64,000 nt of DNA, taken from NCBI GenBank assembly GCA_964644035.1, contig CAZXUH010000001.1, positions 461,720 to 525,719 of the forward strand, written 5' to 3'. The notes below the pieces were generated by a model. It was not told the origin of the DNA, did no database searches, and was given only the letters and a program-made list of their open reading frames with translations. Position 1 is the first letter of the stretch; every line of letters starts with the position of its first letter. Shown here one piece after another: positions 3,408 through 61,298 of the stretch. The stretch comes from an uncultured Candidatus Saccharibacteria bacterium. Its GTDB lineage: Bacteria > Patescibacteriota > Minisyncoccia > Phycocordibacterales > DAORIS01. The translations under genes and the position numbers were made by a program.

Positions 3408-4010
3408 CTAATTGACTACCAATGTTCTGCGGATACTATCGAATTCGCTGATCACTGCCTGCTTATCGAACTCTCTGACCGTTCCCTCTTCATAATTTTC
3501 AAACACACCATAGTGAATGAGATATCTGACAGCAATGCATGGTTCAGAATTTGGAAGTGCATACACTGTTTCTTCGTATCGATTGCCTGCACCAGCATCG
3601 GTCACGGCAGCGACTGAGTACATGACGCCATTTTCTTCTACATCAAGAGCATCGGCCTGCTTATCTTCTAAGAACAAATCAGCAGTGCATGCTTCAGATT
3701 CTGTAAGACGCTCGACTGCAATATAGCTATCAGAAGAAAGATTGGTACCAGTAGCCATCGATTCTGGAATTCTAAATTTTACATCCCGATCTCCTTCATA
3801 GACTTTGTAACTATCAGGATATCCTTCCGACGAAGAAGCTACTATGCTTGGGAAATTGATAGAAAATCCCAATACCTGATTTTCATATTTCTGCGAAAGG
3901 TTATTTTCTTCTACCGTAGGTTCTTCAATCACTTCAGTACGCTTCGTATAGTGCCACACTCCAAGAGCAATCAGCACCAAGACGATCAGAGCGATAAATA
4001 ATTTTTTCAT
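3408..4010 (-). CDS. Hypothetical secreted/membrane-anchored protein
   Basis: N-terminal signal/anchor MKKLFIALIVLVLIALGVW, followed by an acidic soluble domain. Confidence 0.5.
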   Translation of the reverse strand: MKKLFIALIVLVLIALGVWHYTKRTEVIEEPTVEENNLSQKYENQVLGFSINFPSIVASSSEGYPDSYKVYEGDRDVKFRIPESMATGTNLSSDSYIAVERLTESEACTADLFLEDKQADALDVEENGVMYSVAAVTDAGAGNRYEETVYALPNSEPCIAVRYLIHYGVFENYEEGTVREFDKQAVISEFDSIRRTLVVN

Positions 4011-5480: not shown

Positions 5481-6269
5481 CTACGAAGTGTGCTTTCTAA
5501 AGAGATATCCTGAGAGAGGAATTGCAATAACGACAACTGCTGCACACCAGATAAGTGCGATAGTGGCATGATTGCCTACTGGAGTGCCTACCATATATCC
5601 GCGAATGGCTTCAATAACGTGTGTCACTGGCTGATTTTCTGCAAAGATTCTAAGTACTTTTGGCATACCTGCTGTCGGTACGAAGGCACTACTTGCAAAG
5701 GTAAGAGGAAAGACAAGCATGAAGCCCATCCACTGCACCGCTTCGACTGATTTTGCGAGAAGCCCCATGATTGCCGACGCCCACGAAAGTGCAAACGTAA
5801 AGGCAAGCAATATGCCAAGTGCCATGAGCCATTCGGTAAATGTTGCTGTTGGCCTAAACCCTACAAGCAAAGCGACAAGGATCATGACTGTCGAAGAAAT
5901 AGTGTTTCGCACCAGATCGGCAGTGACGTGACCAATAAGTACCGTTGAACTGACCATTGGGAGTGATTTGAATCGATCAATAATTCCCCTCTTAAGATCA
6001 GTTGCGACGTTAAGCGAAGTTGTGAGTGCTCCAAATGCCGCTGTCTGGACCAAAATACCAGCCACGAGAAAGTTTACATATGTTGTGCCACCTGTATCGA
6101 TTGCTCCACCAAAAACGTATCGGAAGAGAAGCATAAACATGATCGGCTGAATAGCGAGAGAAAGAAGCTGATCAAGATTTTTGAAAATATGCTTAAGACT
6201 TCGTACGATCAATACATACGTATCACTGAAAAACCAATAGAGTTGCTTGTGTTTAGACATTTTTTTCAT
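5481..6269 (-). CDS. ABC-2 type transporter permease
   Basis: 262 aa polytopic protein directly downstream of and overlapping the ABC ATPase. Confidence 0.7.
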   Translation of the reverse strand: MKKMSKHKQLYWFFSDTYVLIVRSLKHIFKNLDQLLSLAIQPIMFMLLFRYVFGGAIDTGGTTYVNFLVAGILVQTAAFGALTTSLNVATDLKRGIIDRFKSLPMVSSTVLIGHVTADLVRNTISSTVMILVALLVGFRPTATFTEWLMALGILLAFTFALSWASAIMGLLAKSVEAVQWMGFMLVFPLTFASSAFVPTAGMPKVLRIFAENQPVTHVIEAIRGYMVGTPVGNHATIALIWCAAVVVIAIPLSGYLFRKHTS

Positions 6270-7669: not shown

Positions 7670-8176
7670 CTAGTTTGCATTAGACAATTTTCTTTCCCAA
7701 GCCAATAGTGCTTCTTTGCGTTTTGTTCCCCAGCGATACCCGCCAATCTTACCTGTAGAGGTTAGTACTCTATGGCATGGTATGAGAAATGCTATTGCGT
7801 TCTTCCCGCAGGCACTTCCGACTGCTCGCACCGCCTTTGGCGATCCGACTTTCTTTGCAATTTCTGCATACGTAGAAGTTTTACCAAATAGAATACCTAA
7901 AAGTGCTTTCCAGACTTTTCTCTGAAAGTCAGTCCCCTGCATGATCAGTTTTTTAGAATATATACTTTTCTTTGTACTAAAAATATCTTTTATATATTTT
8001 TTAGTTTCAGTATCTCTCCTCACTATTTCTGCTTCAGGCCAAATCTTTTTACTATTATTGATTGCAGTGGATTTTTTATTCGGATCGATAAAAGACAAAT
8101 GGATCACTTTTTGTTTTTCAATTGCTATGAGAGCAAGTCCAAAAGGAGTTTTGTGTATGCCGTAGGTTATTCGCAT
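7670..8176 (-). CDS. ogt: Methylated-DNA--protein-cysteine methyltransferase (O6-alkylguanine-DNA alkyltransferase)
   Basis: Active-site motif PCHRV, plus the FQRKVW...YAEIA HTH region typical of Ogt/Ada-C. Confidence 0.85.
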   Translation of the reverse strand: MRITYGIHKTPFGLALIAIEKQKVIHLSFIDPNKKSTAINNSKKIWPEAEIVRRDTETKKYIKDIFSTKKSIYSKKLIMQGTDFQRKVWKALLGILFGKTSTYAEIAKKVGSPKAVRAVGSACGKNAIAFLIPCHRVLTSTGKIGGYRWGTKRKEALLAWERKLSNAN

Positions 8177-11085: not shown

Positions 11086-11559
11086 CTACCTCCCCTCGAC
11101 TTCTTTTTCATACAGATTTGCCTCAAGTTTTTCTTTTCTCAGTTCAACTCTGACGATTGCAAATAGACTCATATACACATTGGCGATAGCAACGAGACTA
11201 AAACCTGAAATGATATACCCTCTCCAATCATCGAAAAGTAGTTTGTACCCAGTCAAAATAAGAAATGCGATTGTTACATAATGACTAAAACAGTATTCGC
11301 AGGTAAATAAATAGAAGAATTTTCTGGTAAAAAGAGATTTGCCAATTTTACTTTTCCTAACACACCACTCTCTCGGCTCGCGAAATATTTCTTCATGCGT
11401 AACTGTCCACGATACTGCCGCAACGGGCAAAGCGATTACAAAAAGATAGATAATATCAAACCAGATTTGGTTCATAAATATAAATATTAGAGTATAAATT
11501 AACTGTATCACCCTGAATATTTTATTCAATCCAAATTGACAACTATCCTCCAAACACAT
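11086..11559 (-). CDS. Hypothetical polytopic membrane protein
   Basis: 157 aa, four hydrophobic helices, no recognisable motif. Confidence 0.4.
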   Translation of the reverse strand: MCLEDSCQFGLNKIFRVIQLIYTLIFIFMNQIWFDIIYLFVIALPVAAVSWTVTHEEIFREPREWCVRKSKIGKSLFTRKFFYLFTCEYCFSHYVTIAFLILTGYKLLFDDWRGYIISGFSLVAIANVYMSLFAIVRVELRKEKLEANLYEKEVEGR

Positions 11560-27275: not shown

Positions 27276-28145
27276 CTAAAGGTGTTTTTCAGCCTCAATA
27301 AAGTCATCAAGCTCACCGTTGAGGACTTTTTCGACATCTCTGACCTCCATATCTGTCCTATGATCCTTGACCATCTTATACGGATGCAAGACATACGATC
27401 TGATTTGGTTCCCCCATTCGATATCTGTTGTCGAAGAAATCTGCATACCCTTTTCTTTGGCTTTTTGTTCTTCCTGTTGTCGTTTAAAGAGTTTAGCTTT
27501 TAAGATTTCTATAGCCTTTTCTTTGTTCTGAGCTTGAGAACGTTCTGAAGCTACATGGACCGACATGTTTGTCGGAATATGTACTACCCTGACCGCAGTC
27601 TCACGCTTGTTTACATTTTGTCCTCCAGGTCCTCCAGCTTTTGAAAGTTCAAATCGCATATCACCAGCGGGAATATCGATCGAAATCGTTTTTTGAAATT
27701 TTGGTATGACTTCAACCATTGAAAAAGAAGTATGCCGCATACCCTTTGAATTGAAAGGAGAAACTCGCACCAAACGATGTACACCTGATTCATTTTTGAG
27801 ATTGCCGTAGACATTTTTACCCTCGATTTCAAATGTCACATTGCGATAACCGCCGTGATCATTGGTATTTTCATGAATAATTGCCGCACTCCAGCCTTTG
27901 CCTGCAACGTATTTTCGATACATATCAAACAGCATGGCTGAAAAATCTTCAGCATCGTCTCCACCAGCTCCTGAGAAAATCGTAATGACTGCTCCCCCTT
28001 TGTCATACATACCTGCCCCTTCTTTTTTTGCTTTGAGCTCGGCAATTTCCCTGATCACTGCCTGAGCATTGTTTTTATCCTGCCAAAAATCGGCAGCGGA
28101 CATCGATGCTTCGAGCTCTGCAATTTTTAAATCAATATCTTCCAT
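27276..28145 (-). CDS. prfB: Peptide chain release factor 2 (short N-terminus, no programmed frameshift site detected)
   Basis: GGQ motif (GGPGGQNVNK), RF2-type SPF tripeptide (VRVSPFNSKGMRHTSF), and C-terminal GWGNQIRSYV. Confidence 0.85.
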   Translation of the reverse strand: MEDIDLKIAELEASMSAADFWQDKNNAQAVIREIAELKAKKEGAGMYDKGGAVITIFSGAGGDDAEDFSAMLFDMYRKYVAGKGWSAAIIHENTNDHGGYRNVTFEIEGKNVYGNLKNESGVHRLVRVSPFNSKGMRHTSFSMVEVIPKFQKTISIDIPAGDMRFELSKAGGPGGQNVNKRETAVRVVHIPTNMSVHVASERSQAQNKEKAIEILKAKLFKRQQEEQKAKEKGMQISSTTDIEWGNQIRSYVLHPYKMVKDHRTDMEVRDVEKVLNGELDDFIEAEKHL

Positions 28146-32829: not shown

Positions 32830-32904
32830 AGCGGGGTGGAGCAGCAGTAGCTCGCCAGGCTCATAACCTGGAGGTCGTAGGTGCAATTCCTGCCCCCGCT
32901 ACCA
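32830..32904 (+). tRNA. tRNA-Met, initiator-like (anticodon CAT), CCA encoded
   Basis: AGCGGGGTGGAGCAGC...GGCTCATAACCTGG...CCCCCGCTACCA closely resembles bacterial tRNA-fMet. Position 1:72 is an A:U pair. Confidence 0.8.
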
Positions 32905-32984: not shown

Positions 32985-33057
32985 GTCAGGGTAGCTCAGT
33001 CGGTAGAGCACAGGACTCATAAGCCTGGGGTCGTGGGTTCGATCCCCACCCCTGACA
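32985..33057 (+). tRNA. tRNA with CAT anticodon (elongator Met or Ile2)
   Basis: GTCAGGGTAGCTCAGTCGGTAGAGCACAGGACTCATAAGCCTGG...CCCTGACA forms a cloverleaf with one mismatch at 31:39. Confidence 0.75.
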
Positions 33058-52596: not shown

Positions 52597-52750
52597 GCTA
52601 CAGATACTTTTCTCGCCGTCGCTCGAAAAGTTCTGCAGCCCCGGCTCGGTATCGCTCGCTACTGCTCGCGATATACCTCCGCCTTTTCTCATCTTTCCAC
52701 CTCTCGACATCAGTTCTTCACCGAGCTTTGCTCGGTTCGAACTGCTGTTG

Positions 52751-52841
52751 CGGAGACGGCGAGATTCGAACTCGCGAGAGGCTTTTAGACCCCTACCTCG
52801 TTAGCAGTGAGGCGCTTTCGACCAGGCTCAGCCACGTCTCC
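52751..52841 (-). tRNA. tRNA-Ser (anticodon GCT), class II with long variable arm
   Basis: Reverse-complement GGAGACGTGGCTGAGCC...CTGCTAA...long variable arm...GCGAGTTCGAATCTCGCCGTCTCCG. Acceptor and T stems are perfect. Confidence 0.8.
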
Positions 52842-55464: not shown

Positions 55465-56271
55465 GTGCTAGACTTCAAAACCTTCAAAAAGACCATTTGG
55501 CAACACTATAAAAAGTACGGCCGCGATTTTCCGTGGAGAAATACCCGCAATCCGTACAGGATTTTGGTATCCGAAATCATGCTTCAGCAGACGCAGGCCG
55601 ATAGAGTGATACGAAAATACGAAGCTTTTATAAAAAGGTTTCCTGATTTCAAATCTCTAGCTCACGCTTCCCTCTCCGATGTCCTGACACTCTGGAAAGG
55701 TCTTGGATACAACAGACGAGCACTCAACCTTCAGCGAGCTGCACAGATAGTACACACCAATTTCAAAGGAAAACTACCCAAAGACAGAGAAACTCTTCTG
55801 TCACTACCTAGTATCGGACCAGCCACTGCCGGCGATATCCGTGCTTTTGCTTGGAATATGCCTGATATAGTTATAGAAACCAATATTCGTAGTGTCTATA
55901 TTCATTTTTTCTTTAAGGACAGTAAAGAAGTACATGACAAAGATATTTTGGTACTTATAGAAAAAACCGTCGATCAGAAAAATCCCCGCGAATGGTATTT
56001 TGCTCTCATGGACTATGGAAATCTACTCAAAAGGACTGTTGGTAATGCATCGAGACAGAGCATTCATTATAAAAAGCAGTCTTCTTTCAAGGATTCCAAT
56101 AGAAAATTGCGCGCAGACATTCTATTTCTTTTGCACGATAAAAAACGGATTACTGAAAAAAGCATAGTAGAACATTTCAACGATGAAAGAACGCTCAAGA
56201 ATCTATCAGCCCTTTCTAAAGAAGGATTTGTGAAGAAGCAAGGAGCAACGTGGTATATTGTCGGTACATGA
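55465..56271 (+). CDS. HhH-GPD base-excision DNA glycosylase (MutY/Nth-like, no Fe-S cysteine cluster)
   Basis: LVSEIMLQQTQ...LPSIGPATAGDIRAFAW is a helix-hairpin-helix GPD motif. No C-x6-C-x2-C-x5-C cluster. Confidence 0.7.
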   Translation: MLDFKTFKKTIWQHYKKYGRDFPWRNTRNPYRILVSEIMLQQTQADRVIRKYEAFIKRFPDFKSLAHASLSDVLTLWKGLGYNRRALNLQRAAQIVHTNFKGKLPKDRETLLSLPSIGPATAGDIRAFAWNMPDIVIETNIRSVYIHFFFKDSKEVHDKDILVLIEKTVDQKNPREWYFALMDYGNLLKRTVGNASRQSIHYKKQSSFKDSNRKLRADILFLLHDKKRITEKSIVEHFNDERTLKNLSALSKEGFVKKQGATWYIVGT

Positions 56272-58430
56272 ATTTGAGCACGCCCCTCGAGGAAGCACTA
56301 CGTATAGATACCGAACACAGGCGCGCTCTAGAGCGTCTTGGTATAAGCACCGTGCGAGACTTGCTGCACTATTTTCCTGTCCGTTATGAGGAAGCGGGAG
56401 AGGTCAGAAATATTGCCGAGCTCGTGAGTGGAGAGCGAGTGTCGCTTGTTGGTACTATTTCAAAAATAAATTATCGAAAAACATTCAAATCAAGGATTGC
56501 CATTGCTACAGCTACTCTTACCGATACTACCGGCTCGATTGAGCTGATATGGTTTCATCAGCCATATATAGCAAAAATCTTGCCCGAATCATCGATCGTC
56601 CAGATCACCGGCACTGTTTCGACGGGCAAAAGAGGTATTTTTATTTCCAATCCCGAATACGAAAAGGTCGACAAAGCACCCGACGGTATTAGTAAAAATC
56701 TTTTCAAGGATATGCCCGACTCGGTCAACGGCGGGCTCTATCCTGTCTATCCAGAAACAAAAGGTCTGACATCAAAATGGCTCCATCACGCTATTAGGAA
56801 AATCATCGCTCACAATCTTCTCGGTGAAATAGTCGATCCCCTGCCCGAAGAAATGCGTGAGAAATACAATTTGCCAACAATTCAAACAGCAATCATTTGG
56901 ATTCATACACCAAAAAGAATAGAAGACAGTGAAGTCGCAAGAAAACGTTTTGCATTTCAAGAAGTATTCCTTATTCAGCTTCAGAAACAGAAAAATCGAT
57001 ACGAATACGAGCACGAAACTGCTTGGGAAATAAAAAATAAGAAAAAAGACGTCGGACAGTTTATACAACAGTTTCCTTTTTCGCTCACCGAAGGTCAGTC
57101 GAGTGTTATCGAAGATATATTGAACGATTTTGATAGTAGTAAACCAATGTCACGCCTCCTCGAGGGCGATGTCGGCTCGGGGAAAACCGCTATTGCTGCT
57201 TCGACAGCTTTTGCCGTAGCCACTACGTATCCCAAAGGTCAGGATTTTGGCAATTTGCAGGTTGCGTATATGTGCCCAACTGAAATCTTGGCTCGACAGC
57301 ATTTTGAATCGTTTATTGGATACTGCAAAGAAGCAAAAATATCTGTCGGACTTCTCACTGCTTCTGAATGCAAAAAATTTCCATCCAAGGTCAATAAAAA
57401 TGAAGCGACGCATATATCGAGAACACAACTTCTCAAATGGGTCGCCAATGGCGAAATACCGATCCTTATTGGCACGCACTCGCTCATACAAGAAAAAGTG
57501 ACGTTCAAACATCTCGCCTACGTGATTATCGACGAACAGCATCGCTTCGGCACCGCTCAGCGCCAGAAACTGGCTCAGAAAGATAAGAAATTGCCACACC
57601 TCTTGTCGATGACTGCTACACCTATTCCCCGCACCTTGGCCCTCACAGTCTATGGCGACCTCGATATATCTGTCCTGGATCAAATGCCTCACGGTAGGAA
57701 GCCTGTGATCACAGAAATCGTCTTGCCAGCCAAAAGAAACAGAGTCTATGAAGATATAAAAAAAGAAATACGAAATGGCCGACAACTCTACGTCATTTGT
57801 CCAAGAATCAATGAACCTGATCCATCAAAAGAAAAAGCTTTGGCGGCAAAATCAGTGACCGAAGAAGCTAAGCGTTTAAAAAAAGAAGTATTCAAAGAAT
57901 TTGAAATCGGTATTCTTCACAGCAAAATGACACTACCAGCCAAAGATAGTGTTATGAAAGATTTTGTAAACAATAAAATACAAATTTTGGTTGCTACATC
58001 GGTTGTCGAAGTTGGCGTCAATGTACCCAATGCAACCATGATCATTATTGAGGGTGCAGAACGATTTGGCTTGGCACAGCTTCATCAGTTGCGTGGTCGT
58101 GTCATACGAAGCAATCATCAAGCCTACTGCTATATCTTTGCTGACCCAAAGACCGACAAGACACTCGATCGTCTCAGCGCTCTTACCAAGGCTAAAAATG
58201 GCTTCGAATTGGCCGAATACGATCTTGCTCAGCGAGGTATGGGTATGCTCTATGGTGCCAAGCAATGGGGCATTTCAGACCTCGGTATGGAAGCAATAAA
58301 AAATATTAAAATGGTTGAAGCAGCACGGAGTGAAGCGCATCAGATCATTACGAAAAATCCTGATCTATCGAAACATCCGCTGCTTCACAAACTGCTCTCA
58401 GGTGGTGAAAGAAACGTGCATTTCGAGTAG
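56268..58430 (+). CDS. recG: ATP-dependent DNA helicase RecG
   Basis: Wedge domain, helicase motif I (GDVGSGKT), DEQH box (IIDEQHRFG). About 720 aa. Start taken at the ATG at 56268, which overlaps the previous stop (ATGA). Confidence 0.9.
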   Translation: MNLSTPLEEALRIDTEHRRALERLGISTVRDLLHYFPVRYEEAGEVRNIAELVSGERVSLVGTISKINYRKTFKSRIAIATATLTDTTGSIELIWFHQPYIAKILPESSIVQITGTVSTGKRGIFISNPEYEKVDKAPDGISKNLFKDMPDSVNGGLYPVYPETKGLTSKWLHHAIRKIIAHNLLGEIVDPLPEEMREKYNLPTIQTAIIWIHTPKRIEDSEVARKRFAFQEVFLIQLQKQKNRYEYEHETAWEIKNKKKDVGQFIQQFPFSLTEGQSSVIEDILNDFDSSKPMSRLLEGDVGSGKTAIAASTAFAVATTYPKGQDFGNLQVAYMCPTEILARQHFESFIGYCKEAKISVGLLTASECKKFPSKVNKNEATHISRTQLLKWVANGEIPILIGTHSLIQEKVTFKHLAYVIIDEQHRFGTAQRQKLAQKDKKLPHLLSMTATPIPRTLALTVYGDLDISVLDQMPHGRKPVITEIVLPAKRNRVYEDIKKEIRNGRQLYVICPRINEPDPSKEKALAAKSVTEEAKRLKKEVFKEFEIGILHSKMTLPAKDSVMKDFVNNKIQILVATSVVEVGVNVPNATMIIIEGAERFGLAQLHQLRGRVIRSNHQAYCYIFADPKTDKTLDRLSALTKAKNGFELAEYDLAQRGMGMLYGAKQWGISDLGMEAIKNIKMVEAARSEAHQIITKNPDLSKHPLLHKLLSGGERNVHFE

Positions 58431-58464: not shown

Positions 58465-58537
58465 GCGCGTGTAGCTCAGTTGGTAGAGCAGCCGTCTTAT
58501 ACACGGCCGGTCCCTGGTTCGAGTCCAGGCACGCGCA
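58465..58537 (+). tRNA. tRNA-Ile (anticodon TAT, decoding AUA)
   Basis: GCGCGTGTAGCTCAGTTGGTAGAGCAGCCGTCTTATACACGGC...CACGCGCA. Anticodon stem is perfect, loop is CU-UAU-AC with A37. Confidence 0.75.
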
Positions 58538-58547
58538 CCGATAGAAG

Positions 58548-60503
58548 TTACTTACTTTCCTCCTTTTTCTTAGGCTGAATGCCAAAAATGATAAGCATTT
58601 TTTCGTATTCGTCTCTTTCAATCGTTTCTTCTTCCATGAGACGAGTTGCGATCGTATCTACAAGCTTACGATGTTTAGAAATAATATCCTCAGCCTTCTT
58701 CAATCCTTCATGCATAATACGAGACACTTCAGAATCTATTTCTGCACTGACTCTTTCTGAATATTCTCCATCTTCTCTTCCCCTACCGAAGAGCGCTCTA
58801 CCACCTTCGCCTTCGAGAGCCACGGGGCCGAGTTTGTCCGACATGCCATAGCGAGTGACCATGTCACGAGCGAGAGCAGTCGCGACCTGCAAGTCATTGG
58901 AAGGACCAGTCGTGAGATCACCATAAATAATTTTCTCTGTCACATATCCACCAAGAGACATGGCAATATCATCGAGAAATTCTTTCTTCGACTGAAGCTT
59001 GCGATCTTCAAGAGGAAGTTTGAGCGTATACCCTGCTGCTCTACCTCGAGAAATGATTGAGATTTTGTGCACAGGATCAGCAAATGGAAGTACCGAAGCG
59101 ACGACAGCATGACCAGCTTCATGATACGCAGTGAGTTCTTTCTCTCTTTTTGAAAGAACATGACTTTTTCTTTCAGGACCGAGCATGACTTTTTCTATCG
59201 AGCGTATGAGATCGTATTGAGAAACCTTTTTTCTATTTTCTCGTGCTGCTAAGATTGCTGCTTCATTCATAAGTGAGTACAAATCCGCACCAGAAAATCC
59301 TGGGGTGCGTTCTGCGACCACATCGAGATTGAAATCTTCGGCAAATGGCTTCTGTCGAGCATGAATCTTGAGAATCTCTACACGATCATGTCTATCAGGA
59401 AGATCAATTGTCACCCTTCGATCAAAACGTCCTGGTCGCAAGAGTGCAGGATCGAGGACATCAGGACGGTTTGTAGCCGCCATCACTATCACCTTTTCAT
59501 TTGGTTCAAATCCATCCATTTCGACAAGAATCTGGTTCAATGTCTGCTCACGTTCGTCATTGCCACCACCTACTCCCGTACCGCGCACGCGTCCTACTGC
59601 ATCGATTTCATCGACGAAAATAATAGCTGGCGCAGCGTGCTTAGCGAGCTTGAAGAGATCACGCACACGACTTGCTCCAACACCGACAAACATTTCCACA
59701 AATTCCGATCCAGAAATAGAAAAGAACGCCACCTGAGCTTCTCCAGCCACAGCTCGAGCGAGCAATGTCTTACCAGTACCAGGTGCACCCATCAAAATAA
59801 TACCCTTTGGAATCCGTGCACCAATATCGATAAATTTCTTTGGATTTTTCAGAAAATCGACGATCTCCATCAATTCTTCTTTGGCTTCTTTTGCACCAGC
59901 TACGTCCTTGAACGTTACTCTCTGATTTTTATCTTCCGGATCGATCAAGCGTGCTTTTGACTGACCAAAAGTAAATGCCTGCATACCCGATCCACGCATT
60001 TGTCGCATGAGGAACCAAATAAATACTACGAGAAATACAAGTGGAATGAGAAATGGCAATAGATTGACTGCCCAATATCCAAAACCCGTATCATCTTTGA
60101 CACTTATCTTCACACCAGCAAGTGCTTCTTTGGAAACACCGTAGTTTGAGAGCGTATCGGTGAGTGCTGTTCCCTCTTCTTTCTTTGCTGTCTTCGTTGT
60201 TGCAGGGATTGTGGGTTCAGTAGAACTTGCATTGATTACTTCGGGATACGAGATAACAAGATTGTCTCCAGTAACTTCTATCGATGAGACCTGACCGTTG
60301 GCAATATCGGCTGCGAGTTCTGAGATAGAAATCTGATTCTTACTATCACTGTGAGATGAGATCAGGCTGTAGCTGGCAATGATAAGTATAAAAATGACAA
60401 AGGCAGTCATTAGATTGCTCCAGAAACTCCTCTGCTTAGGTTGTTCGGGCTTCTGCACTGGTGGAAACGGAGGTTGTTTTTTATTGAAATTTTTTAGTGG
60501 CAT
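58548..60503 (-). CDS. ftsH: ATP-dependent zinc metalloprotease FtsH
   Basis: Walker [12 protein letters not shown] motif, HEAGH zinc site. Start taken at MPLKNF (60503); the upstream ORF-track extension overlaps the next gene. Confidence 0.9.
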
Positions 60504-60600
60504 AGGCGCAGTATACACAATTTTCTCCCATAAAAAAAATAAACGCCTCCGCAAAAAATTCATAAGAATCTTTCTTGGAGGCGTTGTGTACGTAGCGTAT

Positions 60601-61164
60601 CTACTCACCTCGAACCATACCAGCTTGAATGAGCAAATACTCCATGATCGGTTCGAGCTTATCGAGACACTTACGAGCACCAACAGGATGCCACTTAGGA
60701 TCCTTTGATGTCTTGTCGAGGATAGGCTCGAAACCAGGAGGCACGAGCATCTTCCAGACATGCATCCGCGTATGAGCAGCAGGCAATGGTCCTTCTTCGT
60801 TTTCAGACGATGGATTGAAGACATCTTGCTGATGACTGAATTCGATCTGCTTAATCTGTTCGGGTCTCAGACCTGCCTCACGCTTGGCAAGCCGATACAA
60901 AGCATCTTTAGACCGCTCACCTATCCGCTGCCGCCCGCCAAAAATCCAGCGCACATCGGACCACATGCCGCCAACGCGAGTGATGAGTAAGTATTCGTAA
61001 CGCTTGAGAACATCATTGTGCCGTATCAAAATGAAATCGTCGGTCGGTATGACCGTATTGGCCAAGATCGTCCTATACACCTCTGCATTGAGATGTCCCT
61101 TGTCCATCTGGGCCAATTTTTCATCGTTGGCAAACATTAATGCCTGTAACTTTTTCGGGTCCAT
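60601..61164 (-). CDS. NUDIX-family hydrolase (degenerate Nudix box)
   Basis: GGRQRIGERSKDALYRLAKREAGL approximates GX5EX7REUXEEXGU, though several catalytic Glu positions are substituted. Start taken at MDPKKL. Confidence 0.45.
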   Translation of the reverse strand: MDPKKLQALMFANDEKLAQMDKGHLNAEVYRTILANTVIPTDDFILIRHNDVLKRYEYLLITRVGGMWSDVRWIFGGRQRIGERSKDALYRLAKREAGLRPEQIKQIEFSHQQDVFNPSSENEEGPLPAAHTRMHVWKMLVPPGFEPILDKTSKDPKWHPVGARKCLDKLEPIMEYLLIQAGMVRGE

Positions 61165-61298
61165 ACGTCCCAGCCTTTCTAAGGTGTGAAAAGAGCACTG
61201 TTCTTGAACTAAAATTATTTTATCACGAAAAAATAGAAAGGTCAATTATTTGTGACAACAAAAAACCACCTCTTTCGAGGTGGCTTCTTGTTTGGAGC

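Follow-up and report, generated by a model that had tools for sequence, protein, structure and literature searches.

Within the 64-kb stretch of DNA that we analyzed (hereafter the window), a gene for tRNA-Ile with a UAU anticodon is located between recG, which ends 34 nt upstream, and a convergent ftsH, whose stop codon lies 8 nt beyond the tRNA. The features of this locus are as follows:

56250–58430, + strand: recG, encoding the ATP-dependent DNA helicase RecG (NF008168, 731 bits), our synteny anchor
58465–58537, + strand: tRNA-Ile(UAU), positions 1–73, of canonical 73-nt length (ARAGORN, Rfam, MFE fold, RNAalifold), with acceptor stem GCGCGUG/CACGCGC, discriminator A73 (58537), D arm GCUC-AGUUGGUA-GAGC, anticodon stem GCCGU/ACGGC and T arm CCUGG-UUCGAGU-CCAGG
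58498–58500, + strand: anticodon T34-A35-T36 (UAU), read from the sequence
58538–58539, + strand: CC 3' of the discriminator, followed by G, leaving CCA incompletely encoded
58548–60503, - strand: ftsH, encoding an AAA zinc metalloprotease (family homology; tblastn in related loci)

The window is densely coding, has a GC content of ~42–44% throughout, and uses TAA, TAG and TGA as stops. Besides recG and ftsH it encodes a mutY-like glycosylase, pepF, an aquaporin, ligA, gatA, an aminotransferase, ABC transporters, type IV pilus genes, a prepilin peptidase, CTP synthase, ftsEX and a release factor, as well as eight tRNAs (ARAGORN). No tRNA-modification gene was found among the ~40 window ORFs annotated with Pfam, and no mobile-element genes flank the tRNA-Ile(UAU). 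The window is ordinary chromosomal DNA; judged by its RecG, it comes from a member of the CPR/Patescibacteria belonging to the Parcubacteria/Paceibacteria group and without a close species representative in the GTDB set, since the RecG relatives, at 56–63% identity, carry labels such as Parcubacteria and Paceibacterota. The only exact matches to the PepF of the window are on short Logan contigs of SRR142713xx metagenomes.

Two gene models in the window call for comment. The mechanical ftsH ORF (58548–60824, - strand) carries 107 additional N-terminal codons, which overlap a 214-aa ORF further upstream (60601–61245, - strand) without a family match; because homology to FtsH begins near M108 (60503), the longer ORF probably extends too far, which also accounts for the lack of an exact database record for its protein. 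For the short release-factor ORF at 27276–28145, an RF2-type frameshift was considered and dropped, as there is no CUU-UGA motif.

The original prediction of a tRNA-Ile(UAU) at this position is borne out by several lines of evidence. ARAGORN, run on the window, calls tRNA-Ile (tat) at 58465–58539 (+ strand), and the coordinates originally given for the gene are exactly positions 1–73 of the tRNA. Positions 58465–58537 span the full Rfam tRNA model (RF00005) with 72.1 bits, the top tRNA score in the window, and their MFE fold is a clean cloverleaf (-31.9 kcal/mol, z = -2.8). The 7-nt anticodon loop reads C32-U33-U34-A35-U36-A37-C38 (CUUAUAC). Position 34 is T in the window copy and in 54 relatives (55/55), and the C34 of the tRNA-Ile2(CAU)/lysidine system is absent. 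Because the discriminator at 58537 is followed by CC and then G, CCA is not fully encoded; in the orthologues A73 is mostly followed by C alone, and CCA is encoded in three. A CCA-adding enzyme would thus have to finish the 3' end. A promoter and terminator scan around the gene gave nothing exceeding chance.

The body of the tRNA is of the isoleucine type, with G3-C70, C4-G69, U12-A23, C29-G41, A37 and A73 in the window copy. The identity elements of E. coli IleRS were reportedly described by Nureki in 1994, and we take C4-G69, U12-A23, C29-G41 and A37 to be among them. A38, an identity element for isoleucine in E. coli, is replaced by C or U in the window tRNA and its orthologues. A G3 or A3 paired with C70 or U70 marks Ile tRNAs and excludes Met and fMet, both of which have C3-G70 (Silva et al. 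2006, PMC1635315).

To place the gene in its lineage we searched one-genome-per-species GTDB contigs with RecG, which yielded 80 related loci. Almost all are MAGs, labeled Parcubacteria, Paceibacterota, Nomurabacteria, Zambryskiibacteria, Minisyncoccia or 'Patescibacteria group'. Of the 80 loci, 54 yield a tRNA-Ile(tat) call with ARAGORN. By tblastn mapping, wherever a related locus includes ftsH the tRNA adjoins the 3' end of that gene, in either orientation; the loci lacking the tRNA either do not preserve recG-ftsH synteny or are cut short by the end of the contig. The UAU tRNA had been described as rare, which holds among cultured bacteria; in the lineage of the window the gene is the rule. 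The orthologues comprise 40–42 distinct sequences, the number varying with the trimming of the 3' tail, and their mean pairwise identity is 79%. In the RNAalifold consensus, built from 40 distinct sequences, 17 of 21 pairs show compensatory double changes and a single cell is broken. C2-G71, R3-Y70 (G3-C70 or A3-U70), A73 and the CUUAUA loop core are invariant in all of them (40/40), U12-A23 is invariant or nearly so, and C4-G69 is present in 34 of 40 (34–35 of 40–41). Position 38 is mostly C, with U in three orthologues.

The same arrangement recurs in the environment. A degenerate tRNA-Ile(UAU) pattern matched at least 120 contigs in JGI/ENA metagenomes, and in 69 of the matches listed ftsH and/or recG adjoins the tRNA; among listed loci of at least 4 kb the count is 47 of 65. 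The contigs with such a neighbor, among the matches listed, range in GC content from 0.30 to 0.59. Taniguchi et al. (2013, PMC3575796) described 371 unassigned environmental tDNA-Ile(TAT) sequences, and it is plausible that the Parcubacteria clade is the home of many of them. Some of the environmental matches listed are not of the Parcubacteria type; several of these lie in dense arrays of tRNA genes, and three are short contigs of 71–74% GC (L125, L136 and L184), which indicates that the UAU decoder has other, unassigned homes as well.

These data bear on whether the gene encodes a working cellular tRNA at all. It might instead be a pseudogene, a tRNA recently acquired from a phage or other mobile element, or a tRNA whose loop presents another triplet in an alternative fold. 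Phages often carry tRNA-Ile(UAU)-like genes, and four environmental UAU tRNAs among the matches listed (L094, L106, L117 and L162) lie in dense tRNA arrays. For the gene at issue, however, four independent structure calls agree and 17 of 21 pairs show compensatory changes; it holds the same place between recG and ftsH in 54 genomes, and no mobile-element genes flank it in the window. The shift of the anticodon by another fold, raised in the original prediction, is excluded by the consensus of 40 distinct orthologues, which gives the same cloverleaf with invariant CUUAUA columns. We regard this whole family of explanations as very improbable and effectively refuted. As traced through these alignments and gene orders, tRNA-Ile(UAU) is a fixed, ancient and vertically inherited trait of a large uncultivated clade rather than a sporadic one.

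The conserved gene order extends further, running recG - tRNA-Ile(UAU) - ftsH - ... - tmRNA/smpB across the clade. The tmRNA gene lies, for example, at 7950–8352 in L086 (~2.2 kb past the window end) and at 11118–11511 in L006; the encoded tags end in ...FAFAYA(L/R)A.

The tRNA body also offers a hint of its origin. In locus L047 a tRNA-Ile(GAU) lies downstream of the 16S gene in an rRNA operon. It is 88% identical to the UAU tRNAs of L018 and L069, shares their acceptor stem, and likewise has C38; the UAU tRNA body is thus as near to this GAU tRNA as the UAU tRNAs are to one another, and only 60–75% identical to the CAU tRNAs. The likeness fits the charging of both isoacceptors by one IleRS. 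It also hints, from a single GAU sequence, that the UAU tRNA may have arisen by duplication of tRNA-Ile(GAU) and a G34U change.

The codon that this tRNA is expected to read is in regular use. AUA occurs 330 times in the 18,883 codons of 74 non-overlapping window ORFs, or 17.5 per 1000, which falls in the 'high' class of PMC12514573; it makes up 22% of Ile codons and is present in 71 of the 74 ORFs. Across the clade, RecG uses AUA about as frequently as AUU. In a codon alignment of 80 RecG sequences, the columns opposite AUA contain 68% I, 11% V, 8% L and 2% M, a profile indistinguishable from those of AUU and AUC, while AUG columns contain 68% M. Because the AUA profile matches those of AUU and AUC, the alignment indicates that AUA is isoleucine here, as a freely used sense codon.

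The same columns speak to a reassignment of AUA, such as that to Met in many mitochondria, with the tRNA charged by another synthetase. We found no support for such a change, and weighed it only since the CPR are known for altered codes; UGA encodes Gly in Gracilibacteria and SR1, and a screen for altered genetic codes has been published (PMC8629427). Against reassignment stand the isoleucine and methionine shares of the AUA columns, the Ile-type acceptor features and A73 of the tRNA, and the action of all three stop codons as stops. It is the most improbable of the explanations considered, to the point of being negligible.

If tRNA-Ile(UAU) reads AUA, the question is whether the usual bacterial decoder, a tRNA-Ile2(CAU) modified by TilS, is present as well. 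The two CAT-anticodon tRNAs noted earlier in the window proved to be real (ARAGORN, Rfam):

32830–32904, + strand: initiator tRNA-fMet(CAU), with CCA encoded (ARAGORN, Rfam, discriminators of PMC1635315)
32985–33057 (end 33057/33058), + strand: elongator tRNA-Met(CAU) (ARAGORN, Rfam, PMC1635315)

The first has A1-U72, G2-C71, C3-G70, A11-U24, G12-C23 and A29G30G31/C39C40U41, an AGG/CCU variant. A11-U24 and G12-C23 discriminate fMet completely, R29G30G31/Y39C40Y41 is also of the initiator type, and a weak A1-U72 in place of C1xA72 occurs in about 1.5% of bacterial initiators (PMC1635315). Its identity to the tRNAfMet of E. coli and B. subtilis is approximately 82–84%.

The initiator has unusual loops. 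Its D loop is short (AGCAGUA) and lacks the G18-G19 pair, and the T loop, UGCAAUU or UGCAAAU, has G in place of the near-universal U55 (pseudouridine). The altered loops recur on environmental contigs L135 (6688–6761), L166 (351–424) and L170 (6647–6720), and this recurrence suggests that the tertiary contact between the D and T loops has changed in a co-varying way.

For the second CAU tRNA, the original prediction had asked whether it is Met or Ile2. It has G1-C72, U2-A71, C3-G70, A4-U69, G5-C68 and A73. Ile2 tRNAs have G3 or A3 with C70 or U70 and frequently C4-G69 and C5-G68, and not C3-G70 (PMC1635315). The Met-type C3-G70, together with A4-U69 and G5-C68 and without C4-G69 or C5-G68, settles the question by these discriminators in favor of an elongator Met, and we reject the assignment as tRNA-Ile2(CAU). 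Similarity to reference sequences points slightly the same way (0.70–0.72 for Met against 0.65–0.66 for Ile2, both approximate), and the orthologue in L035 (5867–5941) retains C3-G70. Five environmental contigs among the matches listed carry one or two CAU tRNAs beside the UAU tRNA, all with C3-G70. Among the loci listed, we found no Ile2-type CAU tRNA in the window, the relatives' loci or the environmental flanks. In both the elongator (32985–33057, + strand) and its L035 orthologue (- strand) an A31-G39 mismatch closes the anticodon stem, and the neighboring pairs co-vary.

We searched for TilS in the same material. A TilS-like ORF with an SGGxDS PP-loop is absent from the 64-kb window, from 1.0 Mb spanning the recG/ftsH loci of relatives, and from 0.78 Mb flanking environmental UAU tRNAs among the matches listed; the only ORFs to which the SGGxDS motif led, across the window, 85 related loci and at least 120 environmental ones, were pepF, glyA and a guaA-like ORF. 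Neither a PF01171 gene nor another tRNA lies in the ~10 kb past each window end. We also ran a TilS profile, derived from the N-domains of the E. coli, Geobacillus and Aquifex proteins, against 5.8 billion proteins; the matches listed come only from the Enterobacterales, Aquificae and Bacillaceae, which are relatives of the queries, and so are silent on TilS in the Parcubacteria. In many bacteria tilS lies just upstream of ftsH. None of the ftsH loci examined shows this linkage; tmRNA and smpB occupy that side of ftsH wherever the flanks are long enough. Altogether the search covers ~84 kb of the source organism and ~1.8 Mb of related and environmental flanks, a part of each genome and always the same neighborhood. 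Since the window is a fraction of a genome, the lack of tilS and of an Ile2 gene within it is compatible both with the loss of TilS and with its presence elsewhere.

The isoleucyl-tRNA synthetase provides a further clue. The window contains no ORF for ileS or another class I synthetase with KMSKS, but in relatives L055 and L067 ileS adjoins recG (TIGR00392, 861–907 bits). Both enzymes are MupA/MupB-like and have a DUF5915 C-terminal domain. Their nearest solved structures are 8C8W/8C8U (846 bits), presumably the IleRS2 of Priestia megaterium, then Thermus 1ILE and the eukaryotic cytoplasmic IleRS; the type-1 enzymes 1FFY and 8C9F score only about 350 bits. By these comparisons the two proteins are clearly type 2. 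The L055 and L067 loci themselves show no UAU tRNA. An IleRS that accepts UAU either has Arg or Lys at the position of E. coli W905 (type 1) or is a type-2 enzyme, and Bifidobacterium and Neorickettsia, which lack tilS, have the eukaryote-like type 2 (PMC3575796). In L055 (8186–11722, - strand) and L067 (8170–11646, - strand), an inserted PGAM-like histidine phosphatase domain of ~170 aa (PF00300, His_Phos_1; E = 1e-32 to 1e-34) separates the catalytic core of the IleRS from its KMSKS region.

Two readings of these observations deserve serious weight. In the one that we favor and consider reasonably probable, tRNA-Ile(UAU) is the main, and probably the sole, decoder of AUA and replaces tRNA-Ile2(CAU) together with TilS; both of these would then be absent from the rest of the genome as well. 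In the other, TilS and a tRNA-Ile2 converted from CAU to LAU are encoded elsewhere, and the UAU tRNA is a redundant or supplementary reader of AUA. Such coexistence has a precedent in Lactobacillus casei and L. plantarum, which keep both systems (PMC3575796), and in view of these species TilS need not have been lost even where the UAU gene is strictly conserved. AUA is frequent enough for extra decoding capacity to be useful, and IleRS2 also occurs in bacteria that possess TilS. On the other hand, neither a TilS-like ORF nor an Ile2-type CAU tRNA appears in the ~1.9 Mb examined, the tilS-ftsH linkage of many other bacteria is missing in every ftsH locus examined, and the UAU gene has been kept over very deep divergence, which is more in keeping with an essential role than with a redundant one. 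We therefore consider dual decoding a possible but lesser candidate. Whether the whole of the Parcubacteria/Paceibacteria, and perhaps more of the CPR, is free of lysidine, reading AUA with an encoded UAU tRNA and a type-2 IleRS and without TilS, is in our estimate an even call.

The best-supported mechanism for the reading of AUA is as follows. The tRNA would be transcribed from its own site between recG and ftsH and completed by the CCA-adding enzyme, and A37, which follows U36, would probably carry t6A. An IleRS, presumably IleRS2, would charge it, recognizing the anticodon, A73 and the pairs 3-70 and 4-69, and AUA would then be read by a Watson-Crick U34-A pair. Misreading of AUG through U34-G pairing could be limited by ribosomal discrimination, as in Mycoplasma mobile, by competition from tRNA-Met, or by modification of U34; the conserved C32/Y38 context of the loop is a further, speculative candidate.

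The type of mechanism is known. The background given with the original prediction, in which lysidine and TilS are the norm and UAU tRNAs occur in M. mobile, Bifidobacterium and some other bacteria, agrees with the literature (PMC3575796; PMC8450103, File S5). The canonical tRNA-Ile2(CAU) with TilS does the same job, being AUA-specific with Ile identity; the clade's tRNA differs in that U34 is encoded, rather than C34, so that lysidine is needed neither for codon reading nor for recognition by IleRS. Like the UAU tRNA of the clade, the tRNA-Ile2(UAU) of M. mobile reads AUA as Ile with an encoded UAU, has A37 for t6A, and belongs to a small, reduced genome (PMC3575796). In M. mobile, however, IleRS is type 1, with Arg865 replacing the Trp that contacts the wobble base, whereas the L055 and L067 enzymes are type 2 and lack that Zn-binding domain; moreover, experiments on M. 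mobile established that tilS has been lost, that U34 is unmodified and that the ribosome rejects AUG (PMC3575796). UAU tRNAs are also found in haemoplasmas and 'Ca. Spiroplasma holothuricola' (PMC5861454), and in the archaea Nanoarchaeum and Korarchaeum.

The combination closest to that of the clade is the tRNA-Ile3(UAU) with a type-2 IleRS in Bifidobacterium adolescentis and Neorickettsia (PMC3575796; PMC8450103, File S5). Those are a single species or one genus within phyla that otherwise use TilS, and their loss of TilS is documented; in contrast, the clade, which is deep and rich in species, has the UAU gene in 54 GTDB species representatives and most of the environmental matches listed. 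L. casei and L. plantarum likewise have a chromosomal tRNA-Ile(UAU), but the coexistence with TilS that is documented there is here the rival reading. Finally, a suppressor of tilS deletion in B. subtilis, tRNA-Ile1(G34U), places UAU on the body of tRNA-Ile(GAU) (Kohrer et al. 2014, PMC3919564). The UAU tRNAs of the clade are up to 88% identical to tRNA-Ile(GAU), some with identical acceptor stems, but the B. subtilis case is a laboratory suppressor and not a natural one.

The ancient, clade-wide spread in the Parcubacteria is the new point, and it is apparently unreported. The tRNAscan-SE 2.0 survey gives Ile3-TAT for 17 bacterial genomes (PMC8450103). No CPR genome with Ile3-TAT occurs in the portion of its File S5 running alphabetically through Salmonella, and the names Campbellbacteria, Wolfebacteria and 'Candidatus Saccharibacteria' do not appear in any of the survey's supplementary files. 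A 2026 preprint on IleRS refers to tRNA-Ile(UAU) as 'rare cases'. In the literature searched, we found no paper linking lysidine or tilS with the CPR, candidate phyla or Patescibacteria, and nothing relevant in the work on CPR tRNA modification or the description of Minisyncoccus.

TilS and lysidine are regarded as nearly universal and essential in bacteria. If the whole of the Parcubacteria/Paceibacteria is free of lysidine, no other bacterial clade lacking the 'essential' TilS would come near it in size, and many environmental tDNA-Ile(TAT) sequences that are still unassigned would be explained. Were the absence of TilS confirmed, assumptions about completeness or marker genes that are based on TilS would need to change for CPR genomes, and dozens of natural sets of tRNA, IleRS2 and ribosome would become available for studying the distinction of AUA from AUG without a modified cytidine. 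For annotation, Ile2 should not be expected among the CAU tRNAs of these genomes.

A second unusual tRNA occurs in the same genomic neighborhood of the relatives. In 28 related loci a class-II tRNA-Ser(ACU), with A34, lies beside tRNA-Ser(GCU) a few kb upstream of recG, for example at 3785–3870 (+ strand) in L007, 1527–1616 (- strand) in L008, 5129–5218 (+ strand) in L016 and 5907–5996 (+ strand) in L019. It is represented by 23 distinct sequences with an invariant loop, UUACUAA, and is also found on three environmental contigs among the matches listed. Anticodons starting with A, other than that of Arg(ACG), are very rare in bacteria (PMC4013482). Taken together, the Ser(ACU) and Ile(UAU) genes suggest that these genomes add Watson-Crick-matched tRNAs for codons ending in U or A; if the clade is free of lysidine, tRNA-Ser(ACU) would be a second sign of extra matched tRNAs replacing anticodon-modifying enzymes. 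The window itself lacks tRNA-Ser(ACU) and has only tRNA-Ser(GCU), at 52750–52841 on the - strand.
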